Positions 2,268 to 33,790 of a stretch of 64,000 nt of DNA are shown here, one piece after another. The position numbers and the translations under genes were made by a program. How positions within the stretch are numbered: the stretch's first letter is position 1; each line of letters opens with the position of its first letter. This DNA is from Thermoplasmatales archaeon (GTDB taxonomy: Archaea; Thermoplasmatota; Thermoplasmata; Thermoplasmatales; Thermoplasmataceae). The notes beneath the pieces were generated by a model, which searched no databases, had not been told where the DNA came from, and was given only the letters and a program-made list of their open reading frames with translations. The DNA lies in contig DAIDBH010000017.1 in assembly GCA_027310185.1 (NCBI GenBank), positions 32,001 through 96,000 of the forward strand, read 5' to 3'.

Positions 2268-3287
2268 TCAGTGCATAAGAAGGTATTTTTCTCTTTCCTC
2301 CTCTGTAATCCTGCTGATCTGTTTCTCCAATGATTTTACCTCACTGGCAGGATCAAAATTCATTTCCCTGTTTTCCTCCTTGAGTGTGAGGTATATGGAT
2401 CCGATTACTGCGTGATACCCATAAAGCGGGTCGGTTGGAATCATTTCCGGATATTGTTCCAGCACATCGCTCCTGACCTTTTTCCAGTAGAGGTTTGATG
2501 CCCTGAATAATCCACCGTAACCGCTGAAATGTACTTCCTCATCGCCAAACATTGTTTTCCTCAGTGATATTATGCACTTTGCTGCCTCTGTGGCTGATTC
2601 TTCCAAGAGTTCAGTTGCAAGTTCATCCCCTTTTTCAGCCAGTTTAGCTACAATGCCTGTAAATGATGCTATCCTGCCTATGTCTGGTGGATTTGTGTAC
2701 ACCTGGTTCACAATTTCCTTCAGATCATCTACATGAAAAAACTCCTTCACAGAATCCGGGATTTTACTCCTGATCACAGATCGACCATCATAAATCTTCA
2801 TTGTTTCCTGTAATGCTCTTCTGGCTGTGTAAAATGCTCCACCTTCATCACCCAGTATCCAGCCCCATCCACTTACTCTCCGGAATGCTGTTCCCTTCCT
2901 TCCATAGGAAACCATTCCTGTACCAGGGCATATCACAATGCCATCCTTTCCTGGAAATCTGCAATCAAATCCAGCCTCTCCATCATTGAGCACCCTTACC
3001 ATTGATATCTTTTCATGATCAACGACCCTGCCTATAAGTTCATTTTTCAGATTAGAGTCTTTCACACCCGCCAGTGCAATTGAAAATTTTGCTATATTAT
3101 TTATAACTATATCTGCCCGTCCTACGGCCCTTGAGATCGCTTCCTTTATGTTTTTTCCTGCTTCTTCAATTCCCCTTGTCCTGTAATTGCTTGGACCGGA
3201 AATACCCATCCCGTGAATGGAGCCATCTTCTGAGTAGCAAACCGCCACGGTCTTCGTCGCACCACCATCCACGGAAACAAACATCAT
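2268..3287 (-). CDS. BadF/BadG/BcrA/BcrD-family sugar kinase, probable GlcNAc/MurNAc kinase (MurK-like)
   Basis: VDGGATKT, GPSN, ND, PGTG, SGWGWILGDEGGA, GG motifs; amino-sugar gene context. Confidence 0.8.
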   Translation of the reverse strand: MMFVSVDGGATKTVAVCYSEDGSIHGMGISGPSNYRTRGIEEAGKNIKEAISRAVGRADIVINNIAKFSIALAGVKDSNLKNELIGRVVDHEKISMVRVLNDGEAGFDCRFPGKDGIVICPGTGMVSYGRKGTAFRRVSGWGWILGDEGGAFYTARRALQETMKIYDGRSVIRSKIPDSVKEFFHVDDLKEIVNQVYTNPPDIGRIASFTGIVAKLAEKGDELATELLEESATEAAKCIISLRKTMFGDEEVHFSGYGGLFRASNLYWKKVRSDVLEQYPEMIPTDPLYGYHAVIGSIYLTLKEENREMNFDPASEVKSLEKQISRITEEEREKYLLMH

Positions 3288-3317
3288 TATTACTGGTAAT
3301 ATTCAGGAATACATAAA

Positions 3318-4427
3318 TCAATCTGAATTGTTGAGAACAGAGAATACAAAGTTGTGGAATCTTCTCCTGAATTTCAGTATCCTGATATTTTCCCTTGTTG
3401 GGTATACCCTGTTGCTCAGCACTATTGCATAGGCACCTGTCTTTGGATCTATGCAGATGGATGTCCCGGTAAACCCTGTGTGGCCAAATGCACCATAGTT
3501 GACTGTTTCACCCATGAATGCGTTGTACCCGAATGACGGTCCTGGAACTGGTGGCCTTGGTACCTTGATCATCCACCCAAGGCCGAACATTCCTCCTACA
3601 TTCTGGTTCTGTGGCGTTACCATCATGCTCAATGTTTCCTTCCTGACAATTTTTCCACTTAACAGTGCTTCAGTAAAAATGCCCATGTCATGGGTGTTGC
3701 TGAACAACCCAGCATGCCCACATACGCCGCCGTAAAAATACGACTTCTCATCATGTACCTTTCCCCATACCGGCATTCCTCTTTCTGGATCCTCTTCAGT
3801 TGGTGCAATTTTTTCCTTTGCCACAGATGGATTAAAGAAAGAGCTATTCATTGACAGGGGTGAGAATAACTTCTCCTTTGCCAGAACATCCAGGGGTTTT
3901 CCAGATATCTCCTCAAGAAGGAAGGCGAGAAGTATGAAATTGAGATCACTGTATTCTTCTGTTGCAGGAAGCGTATCATGCTGGTGCATCAATCCAATTG
4001 TTCGCAGGTAATCTTCCTTTGTCTTTCCATATTTGTAAAGGGGGAATGTTGAGATCAATCCAGAAGTGTGTGTGATCAGCTGCCTGACTGTCAGGTTGGA
4101 TATGATCAGATCCTGGTTGTAAAGACCAAGAGAACCAAGGCTGTCCTCCAGGCTAAGCTCTCCCCTTTCAATATATTTCATTACCAGGCTTGCTGTTACC
4201 ACTGGCTTTGTTAGAGATGCCATGTCATAAATGGTATCCTCACTGTATTTGAAGTTAAGTTCTTTTATCTTTCCCTTGAAATATGACGTTTTATATGACC
4301 CCTTTCCTACCAGAACATTCATTCCTGAGGATACGCCTTCGAGATTTTTATCGACGAATTCCTTTAATTCTTCCGTGAAATTATCCATGTTCTTCCCCTT
4401 CATTCGATTTGCCCCCATATTCACCAT
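3318..4427 (-). CDS. Beta-lactamase-family (S12) serine hydrolase, AmiE/YbbE-like MurNAc-L-Ala amidase candidate
   Basis: SxxK (MASLTK), LITHTSG, YSDLNFILL, GKVHDE, GHAGLFS, GHTGFTGT; exact start uncertain (4427, 4418, 4403 or 4388). Confidence 0.75.
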   Translation of the reverse strand: MVNMGANRMKGKNMDNFTEELKEFVDKNLEGVSSGMNVLVGKGSYKTSYFKGKIKELNFKYSEDTIYDMASLTKPVVTASLVMKYIERGELSLEDSLGSLGLYNQDLIISNLTVRQLITHTSGLISTFPLYKYGKTKEDYLRTIGLMHQHDTLPATEEYSDLNFILLAFLLEEISGKPLDVLAKEKLFSPLSMNSSFFNPSVAKEKIAPTEEDPERGMPVWGKVHDEKSYFYGGVCGHAGLFSNTHDMGIFTEALLSGKIVRKETLSMMVTPQNQNVGGMFGLGWMIKVPRPPVPGPSFGYNAFMGETVNYGAFGHTGFTGTSICIDPKTGAYAIVLSNRVYPTRENIRILKFRRRFHNFVFSVLNNSD

Positions 4428-5407
4428 CTCACAACCTTGCTCAGGTTTGATGGATGATCAGGATCCATGCCCATGTTTACGGCCTTGAAATTTGCAAGAA
4501 GCTGGATGTATACAAGCGAGTTGAAGACCTTTTGAAACGGGTTTGTTTCATTGATCTTCAGGACTGCATCCCCATTCCCAATGGTTATGACCTCCCCTGA
4601 TAACGCCTTCAATTTTTCCATTATTTTCCTGTTGGGAAAACTACCCTCAGTCAACCAGATTACAGTTGTATCCCCATCCAGCCTGTGCACCGGGCCGTGA
4701 AAATATTCCCGCGTTGGATATGACTCTGTGACAACGCCAGATGTTTCCTTGAACTTAAGACCGCCTTCAAGAGCAACAGGGTAGCACTTTTCTGAACCGA
4801 GAAAAACAACCTTATTCCTGATTTTTGTAGATACTGAACCTACTTCATCTATAGCTGAAACGATCTTTGCAATGCCATTACATATATCATCCACTTCCTC
4901 ACTTATGTTTTTATCATTCCTGAGCCTGTAGTCTATGAGCATTGAGACTGCTACCTGGACAGCATGGGACTTGGTTGCTGCAATTGATTTTTCCTTTCCA
5001 GCGTGTGTGAGAATTGAATTATCAGATTCCCTGAAGAGCTGACTTTCCCTCTCATTGGTTATTCCTATCACTGTAAAACCGTATTTCTTTGAAAGCTTTT
5101 GGTTGGAGATTGCATCAGTACTCTCTCCTGACTGGCTAAAGATTATGTTCGTTATATCTCCATGAAGGTTCTTTATGAGGTTTTCGCTGTATTCTGATGA
5201 TGTAATGGCCATGGATCTTATGCCATTCTCAAGTAATGTATAATTTAACATTAGTGCAGCGTTATAGCTTGTTCCACTACCTGTTACAAAGACAAATGAT
5301 GATTTCCTTATCTGATCTATTATGGAATCAATTCTGTCAGCGTTCTCATTGATAGTTTTCCTTATTGCCTCTGGCTCTTCCCGGATCTCTTCATACATGA
5401 CAGTCAT
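4421..5407 (-). CDS. Double-SIS GlmS-isomerase-like protein, probable glucosamine-6-phosphate deaminase (NagB-II/GlmD type)
   Basis: MYEEIREEP, GSGTS, SQSGES, E.SIAATKSH, EGGLKFKE, EYFHGP, DPDHPSNLSKVV; no glutaminase domain; start moved to ATG 5407. Confidence 0.8.
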   Translation of the reverse strand: MTVMYEEIREEPEAIRKTINENADRIDSIIDQIRKSSFVFVTGSGTSYNAALMLNYTLLENGIRSMAITSSEYSENLIKNLHGDITNIIFSQSGESTDAISNQKLSKKYGFTVIGITNERESQLFRESDNSILTHAGKEKSIAATKSHAVQVAVSMLIDYRLRNDKNISEEVDDICNGIAKIVSAIDEVGSVSTKIRNKVVFLGSEKCYPVALEGGLKFKETSGVVTESYPTREYFHGPVHRLDGDTTVIWLTEGSFPNRKIMEKLKALSGEVITIGNGDAVLKINETNPFQKVFNSLVYIQLLANFKAVNMGMDPDHPSNLSKVVRW

Positions 5408-5717
5408 ATGGAGTTGTATTGGTATTAACGCTATAAATCTTCTTTTGCTGCCCTTTTGCATATATATCAATTCATGATTCAATTTCTGGAAGTGGTAAAA
5501 AACGCTCATCACAATTTTGTATGAAAAATTGCTATGGGAACCACTTGGATATAATTTTTTACACAATGCTTCAACAACAATGCTTTAATACGAGCGAAAA
5601 CATGTTCAAAAAATTGTAGCATTATGCTTAGAACTGAAACTAAGAATAATACAAATTTGAAAGTTTGGACACCCAAAATAAACACCTTATATACATAGAT
5701 AAACTCACATTAGTAGA

Positions 5718-6878
5718 GTGATTAATCTGGAGAGCAGTATTCTTCTGAAGAGGATCGTTACACCGAATGGATATGTGGATGACTGCTATCTCAATATAAA
5801 AGATGGTGTTATACACAGCATAACGAGAAAGGGAATATTTGGCAATGAGATTATAGATTATTCAAATCTCACTGCAATTCCAGGATTCATAGATATACAC
5901 ACCCATGGGTATTTTGGAATTGATGCAACCTATTCATCAGAGGATGAGATTCACATGTGGGCCTCCATGCTAGCCAGGAAAGGCATTACCTCCTTTATTC
6001 CCACATGCGTCTCACTTCCACTTGAGACCATGATCAAATTCGTAAATAAGATCAAAACAGCATCACTTCATCAAAAGAAAAATGAGGCGAGAATACTGGG
6101 AATGAGAAGCGAGGGACCGTATATCAGTCTGGAGCAGAAAGGGGCACATAACACACTATACCTGAGGAAACCAGATGTTGAAGAACTGAAAAAAATAGTT
6201 CACGCTGCTGGTGATTCCACGTTTCTGATTGATATGGCTCCAGAGCTTGAAAATTTCATGGAATCAATGGAATATCTGCTGGAGAATGACAAGATTGTAT
6301 CCCTTGGACATTCAAATGCCTCATACGTCCAGGCCAGGAAAGGAATTGAATCTGGCGCGAAACTGATGACACACTTTTTTAATGCAATGTCTCCCCTGAA
6401 ACACAGGGAGGTTGGCATGGTTGGGGCCGGTCTTTTATCAGATTCAGTATATCTGGAACTCATAGGAGATATGCATCATGTGTCAAGGGAGGCAATTGAG
6501 ATTCTACTGAAAACAAGAGATATTGATCACATAGTGGGAATTACAGATTCACTTTCCATAGGAGGTACTACCACAGCAGAAGTTAAACTTGGAGGCCTTG
6601 ATGTCATAAAAAAGGATGGTGTTGCATGGATCAAGGATACAAACACCATCGCAGGAAGCATCCTCACAATGGATGCTGCATTCCGGAATCTTAATGAGAT
6701 TATCCCAGATCTCATGAGCCTGACGAAGATTTTTTCGACTAACCCCTCAAGGGTATTGAGCCTGAAAAACCTGGGATATATAGATGCTGGAATGAATGCA
6801 GACCTGAATTTTATTGATGAACATATGAATGTGAAAGCCACGATGATAGGTGGGTATCTTGCTGGTGATGAGAAATGA
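5718..6878 (+). CDS. nagA: N-acetylglucosamine-6-phosphate deacetylase
   Basis: PGFIDIHTHG, EGPY, KGAH, APE, GHS, THFFNAM, ITDS, IAGS. Confidence 0.93.
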   Translation: MINLESSILLKRIVTPNGYVDDCYLNIKDGVIHSITRKGIFGNEIIDYSNLTAIPGFIDIHTHGYFGIDATYSSEDEIHMWASMLARKGITSFIPTCVSLPLETMIKFVNKIKTASLHQKKNEARILGMRSEGPYISLEQKGAHNTLYLRKPDVEELKKIVHAAGDSTFLIDMAPELENFMESMEYLLENDKIVSLGHSNASYVQARKGIESGAKLMTHFFNAMSPLKHREVGMVGAGLLSDSVYLELIGDMHHVSREAIEILLKTRDIDHIVGITDSLSIGGTTTAEVKLGGLDVIKKDGVAWIKDTNTIAGSILTMDAAFRNLNEIIPDLMSLTKIFSTNPSRVLSLKNLGYIDAGMNADLNFIDEHMNVKATMIGGYLAGDEK

Positions 6879-6921
6879 GAATATTTAAGGGGCAGAACTA
6901 TCTGGTAAGAAGGTATAAGAT

Positions 6922-7743
6922 ATGACGTCATCCACTGAAGACATAAACCCATTTTCTGTAAACATACATGAGTGGGATGAAGAAACAATTAGCTCATTTA
7001 TTCACCTCTCAGATATAGCTGCCTATGAGGCAGTTGGAAAAGCGATGGATGAAATTTCCAAAGCATGCCGGATGATTCTGGAATCCCTTGAAAAAGGTGG
7101 GAGAGTCATTTACCTTGGTGCAGGTACAAGTGGAAGGGTTGCTGCCCAGGATGTTGTTGAACTGCTTCCAACATACGATCTCGGAACAGATTACTTTGAT
7201 TTCATACTGGCTGGAGGTGTCGGATCACTTGTTAAATCTGTTGAGGGCGCAGAGGATGACAGGAACGGATCAGTGAATGAGTTGAAGCAGAGGAGGCTAA
7301 ATTATAAGGACACTGTTGTTGGAATATCAGCATCAGGCACTACCCCATTCGTCCTTGGTGGCATGGACTACGCAAGAACACTGGGATGCAGGACAATTGG
7401 AATAACAAATAATCATGGCAAGAAGATAGAGAAATCATCTGATCTATGCATTGAACTGCTGACAGGCCCGGAAGTTATTCAGGGTTCAACCAGGATGAAG
7501 GCAGGGACTGCTCAGAAGATGGCACTGAATATAATTTCTACCACTGTAGCGGTAAGGCTTGGAAGAACCTACAGGAATACCATGTCCCACATGGGATCAT
7601 GGTACAATGAAAAACTGAAGAAAAGATCGGTTAACATACTTGTTACCCAGTTTTCAATGACTGAATCTGATGCAGAGAAAATGCTTACTGAAAATAATTA
7701 CAACATTAACAGGTGCATAGAAATTCTGAAGAACAGTAGATAA
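6922..7743 (+). CDS. murQ: N-acetylmuramic acid 6-phosphate etherase
   Basis: TE..N, GAGTSGR, ELLPTY, EGAED, GISASGTTPFV, GPEVIQGSTRMKAGTAQKMALN. Confidence 0.95.
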   Translation: MTSSTEDINPFSVNIHEWDEETISSFIHLSDIAAYEAVGKAMDEISKACRMILESLEKGGRVIYLGAGTSGRVAAQDVVELLPTYDLGTDYFDFILAGGVGSLVKSVEGAEDDRNGSVNELKQRRLNYKDTVVGISASGTTPFVLGGMDYARTLGCRTIGITNNHGKKIEKSSDLCIELLTGPEVIQGSTRMKAGTAQKMALNIISTTVAVRLGRTYRNTMSHMGSWYNEKLKKRSVNILVTQFSMTESDAEKMLTENNYNINRCIEILKNSR

Positions 7744-7795
7744 GTGAGAAACTGCTCCAATCAACTTAATATTGCCAGTTATTATGCTCCGGTAG

Positions 7796-8872
7796 ATGAT
7801 AAAATCAGTAAAATTTAAAAAACTGAATCTTGAGATGAAGAAACCTTTCAAGATTGCTTTGGGCTCAACAGATTTTTATGAGGGATTCCTGGTTTCCATT
7901 GAGACAGATGATGGCATAACAGGATACGGTGAGGCTACCACAACACCATTCATTACAGGAGATACCATGGGCTCAATAGAGAGCGAACTTTCATTCTTCT
8001 CAAAGAAGCTGATCGGAGAGGAAGAATCACCTGAGATTGTAAATACAAAGATGAAGGCGTGGATGAGATCATCCAAGGCAAGCAGGAATGCAATTGACTG
8101 TGCACTCTGGGACATCATAGGAAAGAGGGCAAACATGAACCTTGTAAAATTGCTGGGAAATCATAAGAAATCAATCCTGACTTCATACACCGTTGATCTG
8201 GTTGATGCAGAGACTGCGAAATCACAGGCTAAGGAGCTGTTATCACAGGGTCTCAGGGTTTTCAAGATAAAAGTCGGATCCGGGATTGAGGAAGATTTGA
8301 AAAGAGTAAAGGTTGTGAGGGATGTGGTTGGGGAAGATAAGATGATCTACATAGACTTCAACCAGGCATATAACGTTAAAAATGCTGTCAGGATATCAAG
8401 ATTACTGGAACCTTACAATATAGAATTCATGGAACAACCCATTGCTTCCACAGATATTTCTGGATTGCGTTTTATAAGGGATCATTCTGAAATTCCTGTC
8501 TATGCAGACGAGACCATTTTCACGCCACAGGATGTTTCTGAAGTTCTTAGAAGGGAAGCTGTGGATGGAATAAATATCAAGCTGATGAAATCTGGAGGAA
8601 TCTCAGATGCAATGCAGATGGCAAACACTGCAAAATCATTTGGTGTGCCAGTGATGATAGGATGCATGGTTGAAACGAGGATTGCGAACACTTCTGGCCT
8701 CATAGTTGCACTGAGCAACTCTGCAGTTAAATATGCTGATCTTGACGGATACAATAACATAAAGGAGGACCCTGTTACAGAAGGAATTCTGATGAATAAG
8801 GGAGAAGTGAGCTTATCAGCAAATCTACCTGGAACAGGTATAGCTGTGAGGGAGAAATTCCTTAAAGCATGA
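7796..8872 (+). CDS. ykfB: L-Ala-D/L-Glu dipeptide epimerase (enolase superfamily)
   Basis: PFKIA, KIKVG, DFNQ, EQP, ADE, NIKLMKSGG, GCMVE, DLDG (DxD). Confidence 0.9.
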   Translation: MIKSVKFKKLNLEMKKPFKIALGSTDFYEGFLVSIETDDGITGYGEATTTPFITGDTMGSIESELSFFSKKLIGEEESPEIVNTKMKAWMRSSKASRNAIDCALWDIIGKRANMNLVKLLGNHKKSILTSYTVDLVDAETAKSQAKELLSQGLRVFKIKVGSGIEEDLKRVKVVRDVVGEDKMIYIDFNQAYNVKNAVRISRLLEPYNIEFMEQPIASTDISGLRFIRDHSEIPVYADETIFTPQDVSEVLRREAVDGINIKLMKSGGISDAMQMANTAKSFGVPVMIGCMVETRIANTSGLIVALSNSAVKYADLDGYNNIKEDPVTEGILMNKGEVSLSANLPGTGIAVREKFLKA

Positions 8873-8880
8873 ACTGAGCG

Positions 8881-10290
8881 TCAACTCATAAATCCAAATG
8901 CCTTCATTATTGCTCCAACTATTACTGAAGGCTTCTTTGAATATGCACTTATATATCCCATATTTTCTGAAATTATTCCAAGATCGCCGTCAAAGCTTGT
9001 GGATATGAATACGCATATGTTTCTTTCTGAAATCTCATTCAGTAACTTCACCCTTGACCTCAGATGCTCGTTCCTCCCTACAAAGATAATCTGTCTTCCT
9101 GCATCTTTCATGTTCTCTAAGAACTCTATGCCATAATGTAATTTCAGATCCAGGTTCAAACTACCAAGATGGGAAGATACAAGATTTGTAGATTTTGTTA
9201 TTTCAGCCACCTGGCTTTCGTCCTTTGAATCCATCAGAACAAGATCAGTTTCCTTCTCGGGATCAAGCATCTTCACTCTTCTTACAATAGGGGAAACAGT
9301 CTCAACGGACTTCAGGAGATATGGGGATGGCCTGTGTGACATTTTCCTGACCGGTTCCATGAATTCAAGGATTCTCTGTTCCTTCTTTTTCAATAATGCA
9401 TTATCTATCTTCTGAATTTCTTCATAGAATTCCATGGAGCCTACAATATCTGCATTCTCCAGTACATCAACCTCATTTTTAATGGAACCCTTGATAATTT
9501 CTGAAACGTCATACCTTCCCTTTATTGCCTTCATGTCCATGGAATCTGAAATTATGAGGTTCTTATAATTGAAATCCTTTCTGAGCAATTTCTGTACTGC
9601 TGATGACAGAGTGGCTGGATAGTTATCATCCAGGGAATTGTAGAGAACATGAGAAAGCATTATGGAACTGACGCCCGCTTCAGCTGCCTTCCTGAATGGA
9701 TATGCATCGTTTATTATGGATTCTATATTCCTCCTATCTTCAGGTAAATCAACGTGGGAATCAACCATTACAGATCCATGACCGGGGAAGTGCTTTGCTG
9801 TTGCCCGAACACCATAGGACTGAATACCCCTGATGAATTCCACGCCATGCTTTGCAATGAGTTCAAGATCAGATCCAAAGGATCTCTCAAGAATTACTGG
9901 ATTGTATCCATTTAGGGTATCCAGAACAGGAGCCAGGTTCCATCTTATTCCCAGGGAGTTTAGCTGGTATCCGGTGAGTCTTCCAACATAATTTGTGAAT
10001 TTAGGATCATCAAGCTTTCCAAGGAACAGGTTGCTCGGGTTGTAATCAATCCATGGAATCCTTACCACGTTTCCCCCTTCCTGATCCACTGCAATGAAAG
10101 GTGCATCAACATTGTTTTCCACAACGTATATGTGGTTTATCTTCTTTATCAGTTCAGCCAGTTCCTTCTCATCCCTGAAATCATTGCTGAACAGCACTAC
10201 AGATAGGGGCAACATCTTCGAGACATACCTCAGGCTTTCTTCCCTCTCTACACCTCTGAGGCCTGTCTGAATGAATAATCCTGATCTCAT
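8881..10290 (-). CDS. nagZ: GH3 beta-N-acetylglucosaminidase
   Basis: DQEGG, APVLD, RSFG, KHFPGHG.4.DSH (NagZ-specific motif), SDSMDMKAI. Confidence 0.92.
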   Translation of the reverse strand: MRSGLFIQTGLRGVEREESLRYVSKMLPLSVVLFSNDFRDEKELAELIKKINHIYVVENNVDAPFIAVDQEGGNVVRIPWIDYNPSNLFLGKLDDPKFTNYVGRLTGYQLNSLGIRWNLAPVLDTLNGYNPVILERSFGSDLELIAKHGVEFIRGIQSYGVRATAKHFPGHGSVMVDSHVDLPEDRRNIESIINDAYPFRKAAEAGVSSIMLSHVLYNSLDDNYPATLSSAVQKLLRKDFNYKNLIISDSMDMKAIKGRYDVSEIIKGSIKNEVDVLENADIVGSMEFYEEIQKIDNALLKKKEQRILEFMEPVRKMSHRPSPYLLKSVETVSPIVRRVKMLDPEKETDLVLMDSKDESQVAEITKSTNLVSSHLGSLNLDLKLHYGIEFLENMKDAGRQIIFVGRNEHLRSRVKLLNEISERNICVFISTSFDGDLGIISENMGYISAYSKKPSVIVGAIMKAFGFMS

Positions 10291-25584: not shown

Positions 25585-25842
25585 TATTTTTGGAATCCTT
25601 AAGGCCTTAACTACATTTTCTATAAGTTTACCATGTGAGTGAACCTATCAAACTCTCGATTGTATTTATTTGAATTGCTTAACTTAAGGGAACTGAATTA
25701 AGAAGATGAAATGCAATAAAGTGGGAACGATTTGAAGCCTGAATGGATAAGACATACTGGTTATGAGTTTAGTGTTTTTGTGATATAAAAACTTTAATAA
25801 TAGAGATTGAATATTTATAAAGCACATCGAGATGTGGTTCTA

Positions 25843-26577
25843 ATGTGCCGCATGTTTTCTTTGTCTGGCGATTTCTCTAATGAATACCGAAAAATAATGA
25901 CATCTTTTCTTGACGTCACCAGACACGATCCTCTTTCTACGAACAGCGATGGAAGTTTCACGTCTCACGATCATGGTTATGGCTATGTCCACTATGATAA
26001 TTCTTCTCTGGAGTTTTTCAGATCAAAAACCCCTGTTTTTGAATCACTTATTTCAGACTTCACGTCAGGACAGTTTATCATGCATGCGAGAAAAGCAGCC
26101 CCTGGAGAACCAATTGGGACACTGGAGAGTCATCCACATTATGAAGTTGATGAAGATTATGAGGTATTTCTCGCGCACAATGGGTGGTTTGATAAAAAGG
26201 CAATTGCCATGGAGCTTGGCATTAATAACTATGGAAGATACGTGGACAGCCAGCTATTTCTTAAGTATGTTATTTCATTCGATGGTGAATTCAGAAATCG
26301 TCTGGAAAGAGCCCTCTCCTTTGCTAAGGAGAAAGAATTGATAAAGTCAACTGCCAATCTGATGATTCTCTCAATAGATCGTAACACCCGGGAATCAAGG
26401 CTATATTACTATACTGATGTTAAGGAAGGTCGGGAATATGGCGATTATGTGAGACTATACCACGGGAAGACTGACCGCTGGAATGGAGTGTTTTCCTCAA
26501 GCATTATACAATCTGATTTCTTCCCGAAAAATGTATCTACGGAAGAAGTGAAGAGAGGTGTTGTAAATGAATTATAA
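25843..26577 (+). CDS. Class II glutamine amidotransferase-like Ntn hydrolase (YafJ/EgtC/Dug3 type)
   Basis: MCRM (Cys2 nucleophile), H.HGYG, HARKA, HP, AHNG, DS; start moved to ATG 25843. Confidence 0.82.
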   Translation: MCRMFSLSGDFSNEYRKIMTSFLDVTRHDPLSTNSDGSFTSHDHGYGYVHYDNSSLEFFRSKTPVFESLISDFTSGQFIMHARKAAPGEPIGTLESHPHYEVDEDYEVFLAHNGWFDKKAIAMELGINNYGRYVDSQLFLKYVISFDGEFRNRLERALSFAKEKELIKSTANLMILSIDRNTRESRLYYYTDVKEGREYGDYVRLYHGKTDRWNGVFSSSIIQSDFFPKNVSTEEVKRGVVNEL

Positions 26578-26814
26578 TTTTCTGTGAATTGAAAGAAAAC
26601 CTGTTTAACTAGAAGTGATGATATTTTAGCTGTTTTATTCCTTACTTCCTTAACAACGAGATTGACTAATAACGTTAGAAATTCATACTTTTTTAAAGAT
26701 TGGCCAAAAGAAAAATCATAAAACTTTGAACATGAAATTCATTTAAATAACATGAGGCTAAGACTAATATACAGTTTCCATTACTGTTAGGTATAATTAG
26801 GGTGGTGACAAGTT

Positions 26815-28107
26815 TTGGAAATTCCTTTGGAATTCAGATCATTGAATGAGATTGCAGGCCTGATAAAAAGTAAGGAAATTTCTCCGTGCTACATTTTGGA
26901 AAGACTCATTGAACGGATTGAAAAACTGGATACAAAAGTCCAAAGTTATGCAAGACTGAACTCAAACGCGCTGGAAGAATGCAGGAAGATAGTAAGGCTG
27001 TCAGAATATGTAATGCCAGTTTCAGTTAAAGATTTATTTGACACCAAGAACATTGAAACAAATTATGGTTCAATGATCTATAGAGGTAACATTCCCGGGA
27101 AAGATGCAACCGTGGTAAAAAATATCAGGAAAAAAGGTGGGATAATTATAGGCAAAACAGTAACCCATGAGTTTGCGCTTGGGATCACATCATCTCCTAC
27201 AAAGAACCCATGGGACCTTAGAAGAATTCCTGGAGGTTCAAGCGGGGGATCTGCTGCAGCTGTAGCAGCTGGAATGTCAGTGTTTGCTACTGGAACAGAT
27301 ACGGGTGGGTCCATAAGGATTCCAGCAGCAATGTGTGGTGTTACTGGCTTGAAACCAACTTATGAGTTAATATCGAGATCTGGGATTTTCCCTGAATCAT
27401 GGTCCCTTGATCACGCAGGTACCATAACGAGGTATGCAAGCGATCTGATTCTCGAACTGGAATTCATGACTGGAAAAATCTATTCCAGTAAAAGGGAGGG
27501 AACAGAAAACTTAAAAGTCGGAGTTGCCTGGGAATTGTTTGACTATTGTGAACCTGGGGTGCGGAAGGCTTCATTAGCTGCCCTTGAGAAAATTAGAGGT
27601 GAACTGAATATTGAATATACTGGTGTTAGAGAGGAGAACCTAAAATTTAAAGAAATGAAGAGACTTCATGAAATTATTGATACATGTGAAATAGCACTAA
27701 TTCACAGGGAGAACTATGCTAAATATCCAGACAGCTATTTGAAAAGTTCTATTGAGCAGATAGAAGAAGGTCTGTCCTTCAAAGCAGTGGAGTACATAAA
27801 TGCAAAAAGAAGCAGAAAAAAGTACAGGGAACTACTGGATGCAAAGTTTAGGAACCTGGATGTAATTTTAATCCCTACGCTGAAAGATGTGGCTCCAATC
27901 ATAGATAACAAAAAAAATACAAGTGAACATGATAATAATTCTGAAATAGATTTTCTTTCGCCATTGAATTATTCAGGAAACCCAGCAATATCTATTCCAG
28001 TTGGTTTTTCCAAGGAGCTCCCAGTTGGTATGCAGGTGATCGGCAGGAATAATTCGGACTTGAAATGCATTGAATTTGCTTCCCTTGTGCAGGACCGAAC
28101 AGATTGA
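26815..28107 (+). CDS. Amidase-signature family amidase
   Basis: VKDLF, GKT..HEFA, NPW, GGSSGGS, GTDTGGSIRIPA, GLKPT; C-terminus possibly clipped by a nonsense change. Confidence 0.88.
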   Translation: MEIPLEFRSLNEIAGLIKSKEISPCYILERLIERIEKLDTKVQSYARLNSNALEECRKIVRLSEYVMPVSVKDLFDTKNIETNYGSMIYRGNIPGKDATVVKNIRKKGGIIIGKTVTHEFALGITSSPTKNPWDLRRIPGGSSGGSAAAVAAGMSVFATGTDTGGSIRIPAAMCGVTGLKPTYELISRSGIFPESWSLDHAGTITRYASDLILELEFMTGKIYSSKREGTENLKVGVAWELFDYCEPGVRKASLAALEKIRGELNIEYTGVREENLKFKEMKRLHEIIDTCEIALIHRENYAKYPDSYLKSSIEQIEEGLSFKAVEYINAKRSRKKYRELLDAKFRNLDVILIPTLKDVAPIIDNKKNTSEHDNNSEIDFLSPLNYSGNPAISIPVGFSKELPVGMQVIGRNNSDLKCIEFASLVQDRTD

Positions 28108-28345
28108 CATAAAACGATTCCGCCTGGCTTTTCCTGAACAATGATCTCTTAGGCAGAGTATGACCAGATTTAGAAAATAATAAACACATATACCTCAAAA
28201 TTCCATTATATGACCAGAATCAAATACAGAAGGAGCACTTGCTTCTAATACACGACATGAAGATGCATCTGCCAGTTTATTGCCTATGAAAATTTTCATA
28301 TTTTTTTTAAATAAATTTATCGTTTCAAATAACATACTGGATTCA

Positions 28346-29131
28346 ATGGAAATTGAGACTGTAATTGATCCCGACAAAATGAAGAAAATGATCCCCATAA
28401 TAAAGTCGGCATGGGGGATGAACACCATGGATCAACTGGTGAAAGATATGATAGCTGCCATGAGATTCCACGGAGGATTGGCGCTTATAGCCATGGAAGA
28501 TGGCAATGCAATAGGAATGCATTTCAGCTTTACAGGAAGGAGAAATGGCAAGATATATCTATATTCCCATATGACTGGAGTTCTCAGTGATAAAAAGTAT
28601 TCAGGCGTAGGATTCAAATTGAAAATGAGGCAGAAGGAATGGGCTATGGAAAATGGATTTGATCTTATAGCATGGACATACGATCCATTAATGGGTTTGA
28701 ATGCAAATTTCAATATTCGTAAGATTGGCGCGATAGCCAGGACATATCTGAGAAATTTTTATGGAGATATGGAAGATTCCCTTAATTATGGGATTCCAAG
28801 TGACAGGTTTGTGGCTGAATGGCGGATCCTTGATGATAGGAAGGCACAGGGAAAGCCGATGCTTAATATCAATGCGTTGGAAGGAGATACGGAGTTAAAT
28901 GTAAAAGAACTGCCAGATGTGATATCGTTCAAAATTCCAGAAGATTTTCTATCAATGAAGAAGAATGATAAAGATGCCGCCTCTATGATAAGACTTTCCA
29001 CACGTACAATTTTGGAGAATTTATTTTCATCCGGATTCACAGTGACAGATTTTCATAGGGATTCCTCATCATATATCATGACAAGATGTGGTGAAGAAGA
29101 CCCCGATTTCCATGAAAATATTTTTAAATGA
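28346..29131 (+). CDS. GNAT acyltransferase, D-amino acid N-succinyltransferase type
   Basis: LYSHMTGV, GVGFKLK..QK, WTYDPL, NANFNI.KIGA, FYG.M.D.LN.G.PSDRF; next to M20 and NSAR genes. Confidence 0.78.
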   Translation: MEIETVIDPDKMKKMIPIIKSAWGMNTMDQLVKDMIAAMRFHGGLALIAMEDGNAIGMHFSFTGRRNGKIYLYSHMTGVLSDKKYSGVGFKLKMRQKEWAMENGFDLIAWTYDPLMGLNANFNIRKIGAIARTYLRNFYGDMEDSLNYGIPSDRFVAEWRILDDRKAQGKPMLNINALEGDTELNVKELPDVISFKIPEDFLSMKKNDKDAASMIRLSTRTILENLFSSGFTVTDFHRDSSSYIMTRCGEEDPDFHENIFK

Positions 29132-29176
29132 TCTTGGTACATTGATACTCAAATATTTCAAATCTTAATTTTGGTG

Positions 29177-30277
29177 TCAGATATTGATTATCAGACTTAA
29201 AAGTGCCGAACGTTCTGGGAGAGTATCAACGAGTACATATTCATTTTCTGAATGAGCTCCGTCACCCACTGCACCTAGACCATCTATTACCGGACAATAT
29301 TTAGAACAGATATTACCATCGCTGGCTCCAGAAACAGAAACTTCATCCAGATTTATTCCAATTTGACTTGCCATAAGCTTCACTTTCTGGAAGAGTTCAC
29401 CTGTCAGCTTCGTCCTGATCATAGGTTCTCTCAATCTGTATTTGATTGATGCCACAGAGCCTTCTACATCTGGCTTTACTGATTTTAGAAATGATAATAC
29501 CCTTCCGGCAGCTTCTTCAGAACCGTATCTTAAGTCTATTCCAATTTCGCAGTAATCGGGTACCACATTTGTTCTCGTACCTCCACTGATTGTGCCTATA
29601 TTAATTAACGTGCCATCATCAATACCGGCATAAAAAACTCTAATCTTCTCGATTATAGAACTCATTGCATTTATTGCATTGACACCTTTATTCGGATCCA
29701 GCCCTGCATGTGCAGACTTCCCACTGGTGCTCAATGTTATGGTTCCGACCCCTTTTCTTTCTGTTTTTAGATTCCCATTGAGAGAAGCTTCCATGACCAG
29801 GGCAAATTTAGATCTTTTAGCTTCCTCTTCTATTATGGACCTGGAGAATGTGGAACCGATCTCTTCGTCTGATGTTACAAGCAAAACAACTCTGTTCTTA
29901 AGAGTCTTCTTACTTACTAGATAGTCCAGGGCAAAGAGGGTCTGTACCAGTCCTCCTTTCATATCAAAAACACCTGGTCCATAAGCCCGGCCATTTTCAA
30001 TCCTGAATGGATTTTTCAATGTTGTTCCCTCCCCAAAGACAGTATCATAATGAGTTAGGAGCAAAACCTGCTCGCTTGCATCTGGATTGAATACACAACG
30101 GAGATCGTTTCCAGCAGATTCAGATTTTATCAATTCGCATTCTACTCCATATAGCTTCCTTATTTTGGTTTGAAGGTAACCTGCAAAATCATCCAGAAGT
30201 TGTTTATTTGTTGAGGGGGTTTCCATGCTTACCATATCTCTGAGCATTTCTATCATTTCACCTTTTCTGGCTATCAT
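29177..30277 (-). CDS. M20 metallopeptidase (glutamate carboxypeptidase/desuccinylase-like)
   Basis: HYDTV, GPGVFDMKGG, DEEIGS, SAHAG, NVVP, SDGN, GAHS..E. Confidence 0.88.
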   Translation of the reverse strand: MIARKGEMIEMLRDMVSMETPSTNKQLLDDFAGYLQTKIRKLYGVECELIKSESAGNDLRCVFNPDASEQVLLLTHYDTVFGEGTTLKNPFRIENGRAYGPGVFDMKGGLVQTLFALDYLVSKKTLKNRVVLLVTSDEEIGSTFSRSIIEEEAKRSKFALVMEASLNGNLKTERKGVGTITLSTSGKSAHAGLDPNKGVNAINAMSSIIEKIRVFYAGIDDGTLINIGTISGGTRTNVVPDYCEIGIDLRYGSEEAAGRVLSFLKSVKPDVEGSVASIKYRLREPMIRTKLTGELFQKVKLMASQIGINLDEVSVSGASDGNICSKYCPVIDGLGAVGDGAHSENEYVLVDTLPERSALLSLIINI

Positions 30278-30291
30278 ATTATCCAGTATTT

Positions 30292-31386
30292 CTATGATAA
30301 CACCCCTTCTTCAACTTTGAATTTGTTGAGCATCGATTCATTCAACTGCACTCCTATTCCTGGAGAATTGAATGGTTTAATAATTCCTTCATTCATTTCA
30401 AACAGCCTATCCACTATATCCTGGTTGAAATATCTCTCGTTAGGAGAAGTGTCACCCGGATAGTCTATATACTCACTGGATGCCATTGCTATGTTAAATG
30501 CTCTTCCAATTCCTGTTTCAAGCATACCACCGACCCATGAATGTCCCTTATTTTTTCTGGCAATTCGTGCTATGAGATTGGAATTATACAATCCACCAAC
30601 TCTACCGGGCTTAATGTTCACGACCTTACATGCACCCACTTCAAAAGCATTTTCTGCTATTTCTGGGGACGTAATGGATTCATCCAGGCATATTGGTGTT
30701 GAAAGCAATTTTGAAAGTTTCGAGTGGTAGATTATATCATCATGATAAAGTGGCTGTTCCAGATAGACTAAGTCAAATCTATCAATTTTTTCAAGCAGGT
30801 GAAAATCCTTAACAGTATAATCACTGTTGGCGTCCGCACTGAGAACTATATCGGGAAACTGATCTCTTATGGGCCTTAATATTGCAACTTCTTCCCCTTT
30901 CTTGATTTTTACTTTGATCCTTTTGTATCCTTTATCCAGTGATTCCTGAATTTTTTGCAGGGTAATATTTATTTTATCGATTCCTATGGAAATGCCAGCA
31001 TTTGCATAACCTCTTGGCTTCTCACCTAGAAACTCGAAAAGAGGTTTTTCCGCTATCTTGGAATGATAATCATAGAGCAACATTTCCATGGCTGCCTTTG
31101 CCATGTTGTTTCCCCTGATAAATTTGGAATCCTCATTGAACTTTTCAGGCAATGGCATTCCTTGAACCAATTTCACAAGATAACTCCTGATAATGTGAAA
31201 TGCTGTTGTATTATCCTCCGGCCCATAAAATGGATCCTCACTCGTAATTAATTCCGAGAATGCCCTGATCCCTTCATGATTCAGTTCAAAAATAATAACG
31301 TCCTTGTCCGAGGTAGTTCCAAAGCTAGTGGTGAACGGAGATTTCATCGGAATCTTCAACTTGTAATATTTCAGGTTCATGAACAA
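30292..31386 (-). CDS. menC: o-succinylbenzoate synthase / N-succinylamino acid racemase (NSAR/OSBS subfamily)
   Basis: PFTTSFG, KVKI, DAN, EQPL, CLDESI, NIKPGRVGG, WVGGMLETGIGRA, PGDTS. Confidence 0.9.
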   Translation of the reverse strand: MFMNLKYYKLKIPMKSPFTTSFGTTSDKDVIIFELNHEGIRAFSELITSEDPFYGPEDNTTAFHIIRSYLVKLVQGMPLPEKFNEDSKFIRGNNMAKAAMEMLLYDYHSKIAEKPLFEFLGEKPRGYANAGISIGIDKINITLQKIQESLDKGYKRIKVKIKKGEEVAILRPIRDQFPDIVLSADANSDYTVKDFHLLEKIDRFDLVYLEQPLYHDDIIYHSKLSKLLSTPICLDESITSPEIAENAFEVGACKVVNIKPGRVGGLYNSNLIARIARKNKGHSWVGGMLETGIGRAFNIAMASSEYIDYPGDTSPNERYFNQDIVDRLFEMNEGIIKPFNSPGIGVQLNESMLNKFKVEEGVLS

Positions 31387-31565
31387 TCGATTCAGGAAAT
31401 ATAGATAAAGATTTTGAAATGTTTTCCAGTGAATAAAAAAATTTTAACAATACAGATTTTGTTCCAACACAAGAATTCATTACCATTATCTTCAGGACTC
31501 TCATGCTATGAACATATTTACGTTTGGTAACAAACTTAATTTAACCAGGAAGAATCTTAAGAATT

Positions 31566-32675
31566 GTGTATAGTGATGTTAAGAGAGGAACTGTCGAGAC
31601 CAGAGAGATGCTCATAGATTCTCTTGATTCAGTTTTCAGGCCTGGAAATGTTACCGGTTCATCCATGGGGATTGAATTTCCTCATTTATTATCTGTTGAG
31701 AATATACAAAATACGTTCTACATTGACGATGGAAAAGTTCCTGTTAGCCAGGCAAGTGTGCTTCTATCCAAGGTATATATTAACGGTGCTATCCTGGATG
31801 TTGCTTCCCTGGGTTCAGTATCCACATTAAAGGAACACAGGCATAAAGGACTCTCTACGAGAATCATCACTGAAATGACTGAATTCTACAGAGATTCCGG
31901 AATAGATCTACTACTGGTTTCTGGAGAGATCGAGCTGTATACAAAAATGGATTGCGTCAAAACTGGATCTGATTACTTAGCTGTGATTGATAAAACAGTA
32001 AAAAATAATGATATAGACCAGAAAGGGGACTATATGGTGAAAATAACTTCACCGGAGGAAAGAAAAGCTAATGCGGACCAATATCACAGGATTCACATGA
32101 AAGAAAAATTCAGGTACATGAGAACTTCTGATGAATTCAAGACTCTGTTAAACGCATTATGGTTTAAGAGGAAAGGTTTCCAGATGGAACTTCTTGAAAT
32201 TAGAGATCAGAATAAAACCCTACAGGCATACGCTGTTGTGTTCAAGAAGATAGGTGAAATGGAGGCAAAGGTAATGGAGTATGCAGGTTCAAGAAAAGCC
32301 ATAGCATCCTGCCTGCTTGATATACTCACTGAAATAAAATGTGACAGAATTAGGTTCAGGATAAATGATGATGATTTTGATCTTATGGAACAAATGTCCA
32401 GATTAGATGTAAAATTGGTTCATGAAAATGTTCAAGGAACATTAAAAGTACTTGATTCACAATCCATATTCAGAAAACTCAGACCGCTAATAATAGAAAA
32501 GTTAGGGGAAGATTTTGTTTTTAAAGAGATAAAAAATGATACATGGTCATTCATGTCTGTTTCTTTTGTCAAGGAGATTATGGGATATGGCCAGTTGACC
32601 CACTTCATATTTGATAAGATCGACGGGGCTCTAGGTCTTTCACTTATGTTTACCGATGACCTGAATTATATATAA
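31566..32675 (+). CDS. GNAT acetyltransferase, Eis-like architecture
   Basis: SLGSVST..EHRHKGLS, LLLVSG...LY, EYAGS. Confidence 0.75.
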   Translation: MYSDVKRGTVETREMLIDSLDSVFRPGNVTGSSMGIEFPHLLSVENIQNTFYIDDGKVPVSQASVLLSKVYINGAILDVASLGSVSTLKEHRHKGLSTRIITEMTEFYRDSGIDLLLVSGEIELYTKMDCVKTGSDYLAVIDKTVKNNDIDQKGDYMVKITSPEERKANADQYHRIHMKEKFRYMRTSDEFKTLLNALWFKRKGFQMELLEIRDQNKTLQAYAVVFKKIGEMEAKVMEYAGSRKAIASCLLDILTEIKCDRIRFRINDDDFDLMEQMSRLDVKLVHENVQGTLKVLDSQSIFRKLRPLIIEKLGEDFVFKEIKNDTWSFMSVSFVKEIMGYGQLTHFIFDKIDGALGLSLMFTDDLNYI

Positions 32676-32776
32676 AGTATAGACTGGATTCCATCCAATA
32701 CAGGATCATTACTTTTCTTACCCTTATCAATGCAATGATTCCTGTATATAAATGAAAAAATAGTGTAAATAATTTT

Positions 32777-33790
32777 TTACTCAGAAATTCTGCCTGCTCT
32801 CTGCTGGTCCTCGGCGCGCTGATCGTAGGGATAGGTTACTTCCAGTTCACTTGCCCTGTTTATCCTTTCAATATCAGCTTTTGACAGCTCCCATCCGGTT
32901 CCACCTAGGTTATCCTTCAGCTGTTCGAGGTTTCTTGCACCTATTATGGGTGAAGTAACTGCAGGGTTTCTGAGCAGCCAGTTAATGGAGACCTGTGCCA
33001 TGCTCTTATGATTCTTTTCAGATATCTTTTCAAGTGTATTGATTATGTTCTTTGCCCTTCTGGTTTCGAACTGCCTGTAAAATTCTGCATTGTTTGAGTC
33101 TCCTATTCTTGTTCCCTTTGACGCTTCTTCGATTCCGCCCTTATACTTTCCAGTCAGGAAACCTCCTGCCAGTGGACTCCATGGCATTACAGCAATATTC
33201 TCTTCTCTGGCCATAGGCAATAACTCAAACTCAGTGGCTCTAACAAAGATGTTGTAATGCGGCTGAAGGCTTACCGGTTCGTTCCAACCCTTTGATCTGC
33301 ATAACTGTAGTGCCTTCTCGAACTGCCAGGCCCTGAAATTGCTAATTCCGATATATCTTACATATCCATCTTCAACCATCCTGTTGAGTGTTCCAAATGT
33401 TTCTTCCAATGGAGTGAGGGCGTCCCATGTGTGTAACTGTAAAAGATCTATATAGTCTGTGTTCAATCTTTCCATGCTCTCCCTGACTGAGTGTAGGAGA
33501 TGTTTTCTTGATAATCCAACACCGTTAGCATGGTCACTCATCCTGAACCTGGCCTTCGTTGCAATGACAAGTGATTCCCTATCCTGCCTCTTGAGCCATT
33601 CACCTATGATTGTTTCTGATTTTCCGTGTGAGTATACATTTGCAGTATCGATAAAGTTCCCTCCATTTTCTGTGAAGTGATCTAAGATTTCATGACTCTG
33701 TGCCTCGTTTGCCTGCCATCCAAAAGTCATTGTACCAAGGCATAGATCACTAACTAGCATCCCAGTGTTTCCAAATTTCTTCATTTCCAT
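32777..33790 (-). CDS. Aldo/keto reductase
   Basis: LCLGTMTFG, DTANVY, IATK, DYIDLLQLH, GISN, WSPLAGG, PIIGA. Confidence 0.93.
   Translation of the reverse strand: MEMKKFGNTGMLVSDLCLGTMTFGWQANEAQSHEILDHFTENGGNFIDTANVYSHGKSETIIGEWLKRQDRESLVIATKARFRMSDHANGVGLSRKHLLHSVRESMERLNTDYIDLLQLHTWDALTPLEETFGTLNRMVEDGYVRYIGISNFRAWQFEKALQLCRSKGWNEPVSLQPHYNIFVRATEFELLPMAREENIAVMPWSPLAGGFLTGKYKGGIEEASKGTRIGDSNNAEFYRQFETRRAKNIINTLEKISEKNHKSMAQVSINWLLRNPAVTSPIIGARNLEQLKDNLGGTGWELSKADIERINRASELEVTYPYDQRAEDQQRAGRISE

Follow-up and report, generated by a model that had tools for sequence, protein, structure and literature searches.

A conserved chromosomal gene island for the predicted catabolism of bacterial peptidoglycan fragments in an archaeon of the Thermoplasmatales

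A stretch of 64,000 nucleotides from a Thermoplasmatales archaeon (GenBank assembly GCA_027310185.1, contig DAIDBH010000017.1), hereafter the window, carries at positions 2268-32675 an island of 24 intact genes, whose families include those that degrade the sugars and the stem peptide of bacterial peptidoglycan (murein). We put at about three in four the probability that this is a conserved, chromosomal and vertically maintained locus, by which a murein-free archaeon lives partly on murein fragments of bacteria.

The window covers positions 32001-96000 of the 286-kb contig C1 of the source genome, termed G000 here (1.88 Mb, 19 contigs, 99.5% complete, 1.0% contamination). Two further genomes of the same genus are used throughout for comparison, namely G012, which consists of one contig of 1.94 Mb, and G011. 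Families were called by Pfam and NCBIfam profile searches with their own cut-offs, and relatives in the PDB were sought by sequence search. In the window, 25 consecutive open reading frames (ORFs) of 176-1104 amino acids fill positions 2268-33790 without breaks. Every family named in the initial annotation, which had counted about 25 contiguous genes, was recovered by the profiles, and the count itself has probably to be reduced by one. The last ORF, an aldo-keto reductase (AKR; 32777-33790, minus strand; PF00248, 277.1 bits), adjoins SpeE in the genus genome G003, where neither NamZ nor MurQ was found; it therefore probably belongs to the chromosomal backbone, and the island ends near 32675. 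The island lies 34 kb from one end of the contig and 220 kb from the other. Its right flank encodes SpeE, DUF3198, Ham1, a Kae1-Bud32 fusion, HTH_10 and aIF2-gamma, and TrmB regulators are encoded further to the left on the contig, so the earlier statement that the island adjoins archaeal genes stands. The GC content is even, with 0.357-0.438 in the island bins and 0.374-0.423 elsewhere in the window, and it is also even between the contigs of G000. Searches of the window for tRNA genes and Rfam families gave no match.

All 32 island and flank proteins tested are collinear in G012 and G011, with 68-96% identity (95.5% for the AKR in both genomes). The Kae1-Ham1-DUF3198-SpeE block is also kept in four island-less genomes of the genus, with no island gene in the 16-18 kb that follow, and the island is absent from at least three genus genomes of at least 96% completeness. 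Between G000 and G012, where dS is near saturation, the dN/dS ratios range from 0.024 to 0.158 for the island genes from the kinase to the second GNAT acetyltransferase (0.094 for MurQ and 0.024 for the epimerase) and from 0.020 to 0.098 for the flanking genes including the AKR; in the closer pair G011/G012 they range from 0.023 to 0.393. All island genes are thus under purifying selection. Within that closer pair, the genes from the kinase to the first GNAT acetyltransferase differ (dS 0.03-0.30), while the aligned codons are identical (dS 0) from the GATase_4-like gene right through Kae1-Bud32, which suggests a recombination breakpoint inside the island, in the orthologues of window positions 24676-38746.

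The island is patchily distributed. NamZ occurs in eight of 41 relatives, and in five of the 16 other genomes of the genus. MurQ scores above its cut-off in 17 of 401 genomes of the class (a sample with three unpublished genomes, all non-carriers), 12 of them in the host order and five in a family of another order, termed f14 here. Among 121 genomes of the host order, MurQ and NamZ were each found in 18, that is, both in 16, only one of them in two plus two (all fragmented assemblies) and neither in 101. Rearranged versions of the island occur in 18 of these 121 genomes and in a second lineage of the class, and carriers thus make up about one in seven of the sampled genomes of the order. Of 14 further archaeal MurQ loci, 12 have at least two other island families no more than 10 kb from MurQ, the partners counted being the kinase, S12, NagA, the deaminase, NagZ, NamZ, NlpC/P60, the epimerase, S13, LysA, the first GNAT, DUF218, the family-5 binding protein and S15. 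The other two loci are those of second MurQ copies in f14. Of 24 bacterial MurQ loci, 16 were examined (seven further Duganella loci and one further Devosia locus were left out); some of them carry NamZ, S12, NagZ or NagA, and none has NlpC/P60, the epimerase, S13, S66 or LysA within 10 kb. NlpC/P60 was found in 29 of the 121 genomes, comprising 17 of the 18 MurQ carriers and 12 others; LysA was found in 17 of the 18 MurQ carriers and in ten of those 12. In six genomes without MurQ or NamZ, LysA lies less than 3 kb from NlpC/P60 (G374:C12, G035:C56, G432:C18, G454:C53, G455:C19 and G413:C5), and such pairs are possibly a form of the system reduced to the peptide arm.

The nearest named MurQ records are from a Thermoplasmatales archaeon (84% identity) and a Thermoplasmata archaeon (53%), followed by bacteria (36-46%). 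In an IQ-TREE phylogeny of 35 MurQ rows, the 16 archaeal rows of the island type form one clade (support 99/99), with f14 as sister to the order. The second MurQ copies of f14 (G047, G080 and G114) fall among bacteria and have no island partner within 10 kb; they look like a separate acquisition. A MurQ search of 1.84 billion representatives gave 6216 matches, the best being 45% identical. When the tree was extended with the first 60 of 150 listed representatives of 240-345 amino acids, the clade, then of 15 island-type rows, kept a support of 0.999 and gained three representatives only, which are 96%, 66% and 97% identical to archaeal rows. Since the clade remains confined to archaea after this addition, no close bacterial donor is apparent. 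Within the limits of this sampling, the MurQ phylogeny fits one old gain followed by spread within archaea. We lean, with less confidence than in the nutritional use itself, towards the broader history that a wall-less acidophilic archaeal lineage gained the full murein-digesting pathway long ago, apparently once in the case of MurQ, and moved it into the cytoplasm, where the debris of bacterial walls serves as a source of sugar, nitrogen and lysine.

The host shows no sign of a wall of its own. Searches of G000 gave no MurB_C, FtsW/RodA or transpeptidase, in agreement with the earlier claim that this archaeon makes no murein, and the single Mur_ligase_M match in that genome is of a kind also matched in archaeal control genomes. 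AmpD-type Amidase_2 and AnmK were not found in G000 either (Amidase_3 was not searched for); of the Gram-negative recycling set AmpG-AmpD-NagZ-LdcA-AnmK-Mpl, neither AmpD nor AnmK nor a Mur pathway for re-use was found in it. As judged from gene content, the host is without an endogenous murein substrate and without a recycling use for the island. Because no wall is made, the use would be feeding rather than recycling.

The pattern of lysine genes points in the same direction. LysA, the meso-diaminopimelate (meso-DAP) decarboxylase (14777-16069, minus strand; TIGR01048, 329.8 bits against a cut-off of 297.9), is present in a single copy in G000, and among the 17 genus genomes it occurs in six, exactly those that carry NamZ. 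Neither the 17 genus genomes nor the 121 order genomes yielded DapF, while the archaeal controls match. The lack of DapF, together with a LysA that tracks NamZ within the genus, suggests that meso-DAP comes from outside, with murein as its obvious source; we propose that LysA is not biosynthetic here and makes L-lysine from wall-derived DAP. Its value as a strict marker of the island beyond the genus was rejected, and across the order LysA may serve either DAP salvage or lysine synthesis. The earlier suggestion that bacterial wall fragments serve as a nutrient source gains from the LysA/DapF pattern, from the lack of a phosphotransferase system (PTS) and from the archaea-only MurQ clade, nutrient use itself being what these would imply.

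From the gene families we infer substrates, order of steps, transport and physiological use as follows. A surface-anchored binding protein would capture muropeptides or stem peptides and pass them to an Opp-type ATP-binding cassette (ABC) translocon that would be encoded elsewhere. In the cytoplasm, NagZ would remove N-acetylglucosamine (GlcNAc) and NamZ N-acetylmuramic acid (MurNAc), while the S12 hydrolase, by analogy with AmiE, may free the peptide from MurNAc. The BadF-type kinase, needed where there is no PTS, would make MurNAc-6-phosphate and GlcNAc-6-phosphate; MurQ would convert MurNAc-6-phosphate to GlcNAc-6-phosphate and D-lactate, and NagA and the SIS deaminase would then yield fructose-6-phosphate, acetate and ammonia. 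In the peptide arm, S13 and S66 are predicted to trim D-Ala and NlpC/P60 to cut the gamma-D-Glu-DAP bond, the epimerase would produce L-Ala-L-Glu from L-Ala-D-Glu as the substrate of a peptidase (S15 or M20), LysA would decarboxylate meso-DAP to L-lysine, and the set of GNAT, NSAR and M20 enzymes may convert D- to L-amino acids.

Two enzymes of the sugar arm score above curated cut-offs. MurQ, the MurNAc-6-phosphate etherase (6922-7743, plus strand), scores 308.2 bits with NF003915 (cut-off 168) and passes NF009222 (257.4 against 255), with TIGR00274 at 259.1, below 302; NagA, the GlcNAc-6-phosphate deacetylase (5718-6878, plus strand), scores 282.7 bits with TIGR00221 (cut-off 225.65) and has HxH at residues 61-63. 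The putative glucosamine-6-phosphate deaminase of the NagB-II/GlmD type (4421-5566, minus strand) is a double-SIS protein like the C-terminal part of GlmS, with PF01380 in two stretches, and matches NagB-II (120.8 bits) and GlmD (112.4 bits) below both equivalog cut-offs; its true start is probably about 40 codons downstream of the ORF start, because the orthologues align over 341 of 381 residues. The NagZ-type beta-N-acetylglucosaminidase of family GH3 (8881-10290, minus strand; PF00933, 177.1 bits), predicted to be cytoplasmic, has the motif KHFPGHG at residue 166. Two paralogues belong to the GH171 exo-beta-N-acetylmuramidase family, NamZ 1 (12028-13302, minus strand; NamZ_N 221.7 and NamZ_C 152.8 bits) and NamZ 2 (17580-18680, plus strand; 194.8 and 80.5 bits), the latter being 28-31% identical to the former type in cross-matches; in both, the two domains clearly exceed their Pfam cut-offs. 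The BadF/BcrAD-type ASKHA sugar kinase (2268-3287, minus strand; PF01869, 118 bits), for which we propose a MurNAc/GlcNAc 6-kinase role, also accompanies MurQ in the clusters of other archaea. None of the 17 genus genomes, G000 among them, yielded PTS EIIC, while controls match in seven; with no PTS MurP route found, the kinase would have to supply MurNAc-6-phosphate. The S12 serine hydrolase of beta-lactamase fold (3318-4427, minus strand; PF00144, 155.5 bits) has PBP4B as its best NCBIfam match (114.2 bits, below the cut-off) and carries SxxK at 71-74 and HTG at 316. It adjoins or lies near MurQ in archaeal loci and in four of the 16 bacterial loci. The proposed function is an AmiE/PBP4B-like MurNAc-L-Ala amidase or a D-peptidase, the AmiE role being proposed from gene linkage only.

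An FMN-dependent dehydrogenase at 1025-2182 was considered for the D-lactate that MurQ releases and was not adopted, since the models that match it best describe L-lactate enzymes and none of them reaches its cut-off, and its family is known for L-2-hydroxy acids. EtfA, EtfB and ETF-QO are encoded upstream of this enzyme and of a ChrB_C-domain gene (G000:C1:28538-32015), with an unproven link to the island. The ChrB_C-domain protein itself, at the left edge of the window (401-937), is syntenic in G011 and G012 and has no evident island link.

For the peptide arm, the motifs of S13, NlpC/P60, S66 and both enolase-superfamily enzymes, like those of NagZ and NagA, which we take to be catalytic, are all present. 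The YkfB-like L-Ala-D/L-Glu epimerase (7796-8872, plus strand; MR_MLE_N and MR_MLE_C) has K157xK159, D187, E213 and D238, and its PDB matches are the dipeptide epimerase 3jva (3.5e-63) and the L-Ala-D/L-Glu epimerases 1jpm/1tkk (1.4e-54). The SH3 and NlpC/P60 cysteine peptidase (13299-13988, minus strand; PF00877, SH3_16 and SH3_3), a putative YkfC-like gamma-D-Glu-diamino-acid endopeptidase, has the triad C134, H180 and H192 and matches 3h41 best, then the dipeptidyl-peptidase VI entries 3npf/3pvq. The LdcA-like S66 LD-carboxypeptidase (18731-19702, minus strand; Peptidase_S66 and S66C) shows the nucleophile motif GYS127D. A second LD-carboxypeptidase, 51% identical to it, is encoded at G000:C6:70732-71670, where it adjoins a further M20 peptidase, a Ta1207-family protein and an aromatic amino-acid lyase (C6:69558-71676). 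The compact S13 (PBP4-type) DD-carboxy/endopeptidase (23489-24598, plus strand; PF02113, 148.6 bits; TIGR00666, 113.2 against 107.8), predicted to be cytoplasmic, has SxxK at 34, SxN at 210 and KTG at 313. The S15 CocE/NonD-family hydrolase (10334-11977, minus strand; TIGR00976, 295.3 against 66.3), which recurs in the G017 and L010 clusters, is proposed as a peptidase of this arm.

A further group of genes could handle D-amino acids. The enzyme of the N-succinyl/N-acyl-amino-acid racemase (NSAR)/o-succinylbenzoate synthase (OSBS) family (30292-31386, minus strand; TIGR01928, 370 against 200.65) matches N-acylamino acid racemases in the PDB at 1e-66 to 1e-75, and may also have OSBS activity for quinone synthesis. 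Its neighbours are without an equivalog match, namely an ArgE/DapE/carboxypeptidase G2-like M20 metallohydrolase (29177-30277, minus strand; PF01546 and M20_dimer; PRK07338, 235.2 bits, below 357), proposed from its family to be an N-acyl-L-amino-acid deacylase or a dipeptidase, and two GNAT acetyltransferases. GNAT 1 (24676-25584, minus strand; Acetyltransf_7 and Acetyltransf_1), also found in the clusters of G017, G034, G401, G080 and G114, is proposed to N-acylate de-N-acetylated sugars or D-amino acids; its nearest Atlas cluster is from Thermoplasmatota (0.98), which is taken as a lead only. GNAT 2 (31566-32675, plus strand) is of the Acetyltransf_9 type (PF13527, 32.5 bits) and has no NCBIfam match.

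Where the enzymes act could be judged from their N-termini. The family-5 solute-binding protein of 1104 amino acids (19940-23254, minus strand; PF00496, SBP_bac_5, 105 bits) has hydrophobic segments at residue 1, which is signal-like (10-residue KD score 3.24), and at residue 1068, as a C-terminal anchor. It is the only island protein with a signal-like N-terminus, none being found on the longest ORFs of the others, among them NagZ, both NamZ, S12, S13, S66, S15 and NlpC/P60. Given hydrolases without signals and a genome in which no SLT, GH25 or GH73 was found, the best reading of these data is that fragments already released by bacteria would be taken up and then catabolised in the cytoplasm, that is, scavenging and not lysis. 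A paralogue of the binding protein, 47% identical, heads a full Opp-type operon with two permeases and a fused ATPase on contig C18 of G000, and this operon is a candidate translocon for the orphan binding protein of the island. A CUT1 ABC cassette was also considered as the island transporter and is read as an alpha-glucoside cassette instead. It contains GH31, TrmB, a second BadF-type kinase and the CUT1 ABC transporter; in G012 it forms an 8.6-kb insert between the epimerase and NagZ (C1, about 1603100-1611700), and in G000 it lies 22 kb left of the island (C1:3923-12463), inside an alpha-glucan region.

Public sequencing runs give some information on habitat and expression. All or part of the stretch was met in 20 runs from seven studies, and 17 of the 22 listed runs contain half or more of the words sampled from 2268-12000; these are labelled mine tailings, mine drainage, microbial fuel cell and once plain metagenome; three of the run rows may be the source sample. 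In the RNA library X5, nine contigs of at least 99% identity together span each of the 30 bins of 2268-22267, and their ends fall between genes. Two libraries of other studies contain matching pieces of 90-99% identity, 37 in X19 and 12 in X20; of the 30 bins, 26 are covered in X18, 23 in X19 and 11 in X20, the uncovered ones being given no weight, and the shares of sampled words are 0.17 for X19 and 0.07 for X20. In X5 the contig depth varies from 16 to 1122 between transcription units, a weak hint of RNA. The island is likely transcribed. For the binding-protein contig (19892-22267), the depth, a poor measure when taken from contigs, is 1122 in X5 and 66 in X18, with neighbours at 16-172 and below 16, respectively.

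Several points weigh against the proposed use of murein fragments. Some enzymes stay below the cut-offs of their most specific models, such as NagZ (NF003740, 161.2 against 207), the Ala-Glu epimerase (equivalog, 225.1 against 500), S66 (LdcA, NF008424, 103.2 against 378) and the kinase (NagK_SO3507, 87.4 against 370), so that these four are assigned to their families only. The best PDB relative of the kinase is the archaeal broad-range hexokinase 2e2n (1.9e-34), ahead of the MurNAc/GlcNAc kinase 8zo3 (3.9e-22); for this hexokinase a clash with the lactyl group of MurNAc is predicted, and MurNAc binding is said not to be readable from sequence, in the accessible part of the MurK paper (PMC10465942). 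Because the kinase is closer to 2e2n than to 8zo3, its identity as a MurK is putative at most; the initial annotation was thus right about the BadF type, while the match to clostridial MurK that it had drawn is likewise putative. S12 lacks YxN, and its PDB relatives, led by the alkaline D-peptidase 4y7p, are D-peptidases and DD-carboxypeptidases, with no amidase. Profile searches found no permease or regulator among the island ORFs, in particular none of the RpiR-type/MurR (HTH-SIS) kind among the 25, and the 13 island intergenic regions share AT-rich TATA-like words only and no operator. The absence of SLT, GH25 and GH73 leaves G000 without a found wall-releasing enzyme, yet it fits scavenging. 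LysA-like genes occur in 48 of the 121 order genomes against 18 for MurQ. Bacterial sampling of the MurQ tree is limited to 16 named loci and 60 unnamed representatives. Finally, the RNA-library matches are assembled contigs with no silent stretch as control, and X5 and X18 share their sample with the possible DNA source.

The other explanations can be set against the same data. A more general scavenging of amino sugars and D-amino-acid peptides, for example GlcNAc oligomers of chitin or fungal walls and peptides of non-ribosomal or racemised kind, for which peptidoglycan would not be the chief substrate, is unlikely, though it is the most credible of the alternatives. NagZ, NagA, the SIS deaminase and a hexokinase-like kinase would suit any GlcNAc source, S12, S15, M20, the amidase and NSAR are broad families, and ten genomes of the order have NlpC/P60 and LysA without MurQ or NamZ. 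However, the substrate of MurQ and of both NamZ is MurNAc, a sugar not known outside murein, going by the family definitions and the part of PMC8054146 that was accessible; MurQ and NamZ occur together in 16 of 20 carriers; and LdcA, the YkfC-like NlpC/P60, the epimerase and LysA match the four bonds and residues of a DAP-type stem peptide. It is improbable that the hydrolases leave the cell to lyse bacteria nearby. Some archaea do have single lytic enzymes, such as a GH25 lysozyme (PMC4241558) or, in Woesearchaeota, GH23 (PMC9723730), as far as the available portions of these papers describe them, and non-classical release by wall-less cells is conceivable; but the eight hydrolases named above are without a signal-like N-terminus, all hydrolases are from exo-acting or fragment-acting families, and the genome yielded no SLT, GH25 or GH73.

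Equally improbable is a role in the turnover of an endogenous polymer that contains MurNAc or DAP, or in the sensing of muropeptides, which would not be nutritional. Bacteria use the same enzymes to recycle their own walls (available text of PMC8054146), whereas here a genome of 99.5% completeness yielded no MurB_C, FtsW/RodA, transpeptidase or DapF, the Mur_ligase_M match is of the kind seen in archaeal controls, and relatives that are nearly complete lack the island. The chance that a bacterial fragment was mis-joined to archaeal DNA during assembly, as might be suspected from enzyme families that are all typical of bacteria, is negligible. A chimeric contig is ruled out because the same order, content and both flanks recur in the closed genome G012, and also in G011; the composition is uniform, the island lies far from both contig ends, and the MurQ clade holds archaea only. 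The use of bacterial murein fragments as food therefore remains our preferred reading.

The remaining island genes are less easily assigned. The DUF218 protein (14207-14737, plus strand; PF02698, 78.4 bits) recurs in archaeal clusters, namely those of G017, G145, G236 and G359. The Abhydrolase_3 esterase of the hormone-sensitive-lipase family (16243-17292, minus strand; PF07859, 160 bits; LipP1, 169.4 bits, below the cut-off) is syntenic only in G011 and G012 and is possibly, with some uncertainty, a de-O-acetylase. The class-II glutamine-amidotransferase-like Ntn hydrolase (GATase_4-like; 25807-26577, plus strand; PF13230, 24.1 bits against 23), also present in the G287 cluster, has its probable true start at M13-C14. 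The amidase-signature enzyme (26815-28107, plus strand; PF01425, 289.2 bits) has NCBIfam matches that are all below cut-off. Finally, a protein of 283 amino acids (28280-29131, plus strand) is without a Pfam or NCBIfam family; its Atlas features (0.97) and TM score (0.87) to Acetyltransf_1 clusters give a GNAT-like fold as a lead only.

Much organic carbon and nitrogen is stored in peptidoglycan, whose breakdown is credited to bacteria and eukaryotic grazers. If the proposed use is true, archaea would be a third kind of murein consumer and an unrecognised peptidoglycan sink in biofilms and sediments, and the island would tie archaea to bacteria by a concrete trophic link in the biofilms of acid mines, with a defined nutritional dependence of the former on the latter. 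It would also be a natural example of how hydrolases that bacteria export can be put to use in the cytoplasm. In addition, the locus offers versions of NamZ, MurQ, LdcA and YkfC-type enzymes from an acid habitat. Since the island is present in some genomes of the genus and not found in others, and closed carriers exist, paired growth, labelling and knockout tests are feasible. As for novelty, which the initial annotation had left to a literature check, no archaeal pathway for the catabolism of MurNAc or peptidoglycan was found described in a search that did not extend to subscription journals and supplementary files.

Compared with known systems, the island would represent a known bacterial pathway in an altered form, in an unexpected host and at an unexpected cellular location. 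A kinase-dependent MurNAc route through MurK and MurQ is known in Clostridium acetobutylicum. Stem peptides are salvaged by ykfABCD/dpp in Bacillus subtilis and by LdcA, MpaA, YcjG and MppA-OppBCDF in Escherichia coli. The island has in common with these the YkfB-like epimerase, the YkfC-like SH3-NlpC/P60 protein and the LD-carboxypeptidase, and its orphan family-5 binding protein, like MppA, could borrow an Opp translocon encoded elsewhere. Unlike them, it joins the peptide arm with the sugar arm, LysA, S13 and the NSAR set in one locus, and its binding protein has 1104 amino acids and is predicted to be membrane-anchored. The N-succinylamino-acid racemase pathway of Geobacillus converts D- to L-amino acids irreversibly; similarly, the putative NSAR/OSBS racemase of the island adjoins an M20 hydrolase and GNAT-type acyltransferases.

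The operon murQ-murR-murP-amiE-nagZ-namZ(ybbC) of B. subtilis, as described in the accessible part of PMC8054146, resembles the island in that MurQ, a GH3 NagZ, NamZ and a partner of beta-lactamase fold, AmiE in the operon and S12 in the island, are together, and its enzymes split peptidoglycan from the non-reducing end into GlcNAc, MurNAc and peptide. However, AmiE, NagZ and NamZ are secreted in B. subtilis, whereas the island counterparts have no signal-like N-terminus; MurNAc enters there via the PTS protein MurP under regulation by MurR (PMC8054146), whereas here no PTS EIIC was found and the island has no RpiR-type regulator. The same text lists NamZ in Bacteroidetes, Firmicutes, Actinobacteria and gamma-proteobacteria, and archaea are not mentioned in the portion available. 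Tannerella forsythia, with MurK and MurQ, takes MurNAc from other bacteria and uses an ASKHA kinase without PTS and then MurQ, as proposed here, but it builds its own wall from the MurNAc (accessible part of PMC10465942), while the archaeon is wall-less. Likewise, Fidelibacter multiformis IA91 needs wall fragments of other bacteria for carbon and energy, as proposed for the archaeon, although, being a bacterium, it makes its own wall out of them as well (PMC11652737, as far as available). The archaeal GH25 (PMC4241558) and the GH23 of Woesearchaeota (PMC9723730) are also murein-acting enzymes of bacterial origin in archaea; in the available parts of these papers they are single secreted endolytic enzymes read as weapons, whereas the island would encode a complete downstream pathway predicted to be cytoplasmic. 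The nearest analogue is found in anaerobic ciliates, a wall-less lineage with murein genes of bacterial origin, where laterally acquired NamZ, murQ, pbp4b (S12-type) and lysA are read by the authors, in the part of the paper available, as serving the digestion of wall debris (PMC13198582). The ciliates ingest bacteria and have these genes scattered, whereas the archaeon is without phagocytosis and has its genes, including those of the peptide arm, in one cluster.

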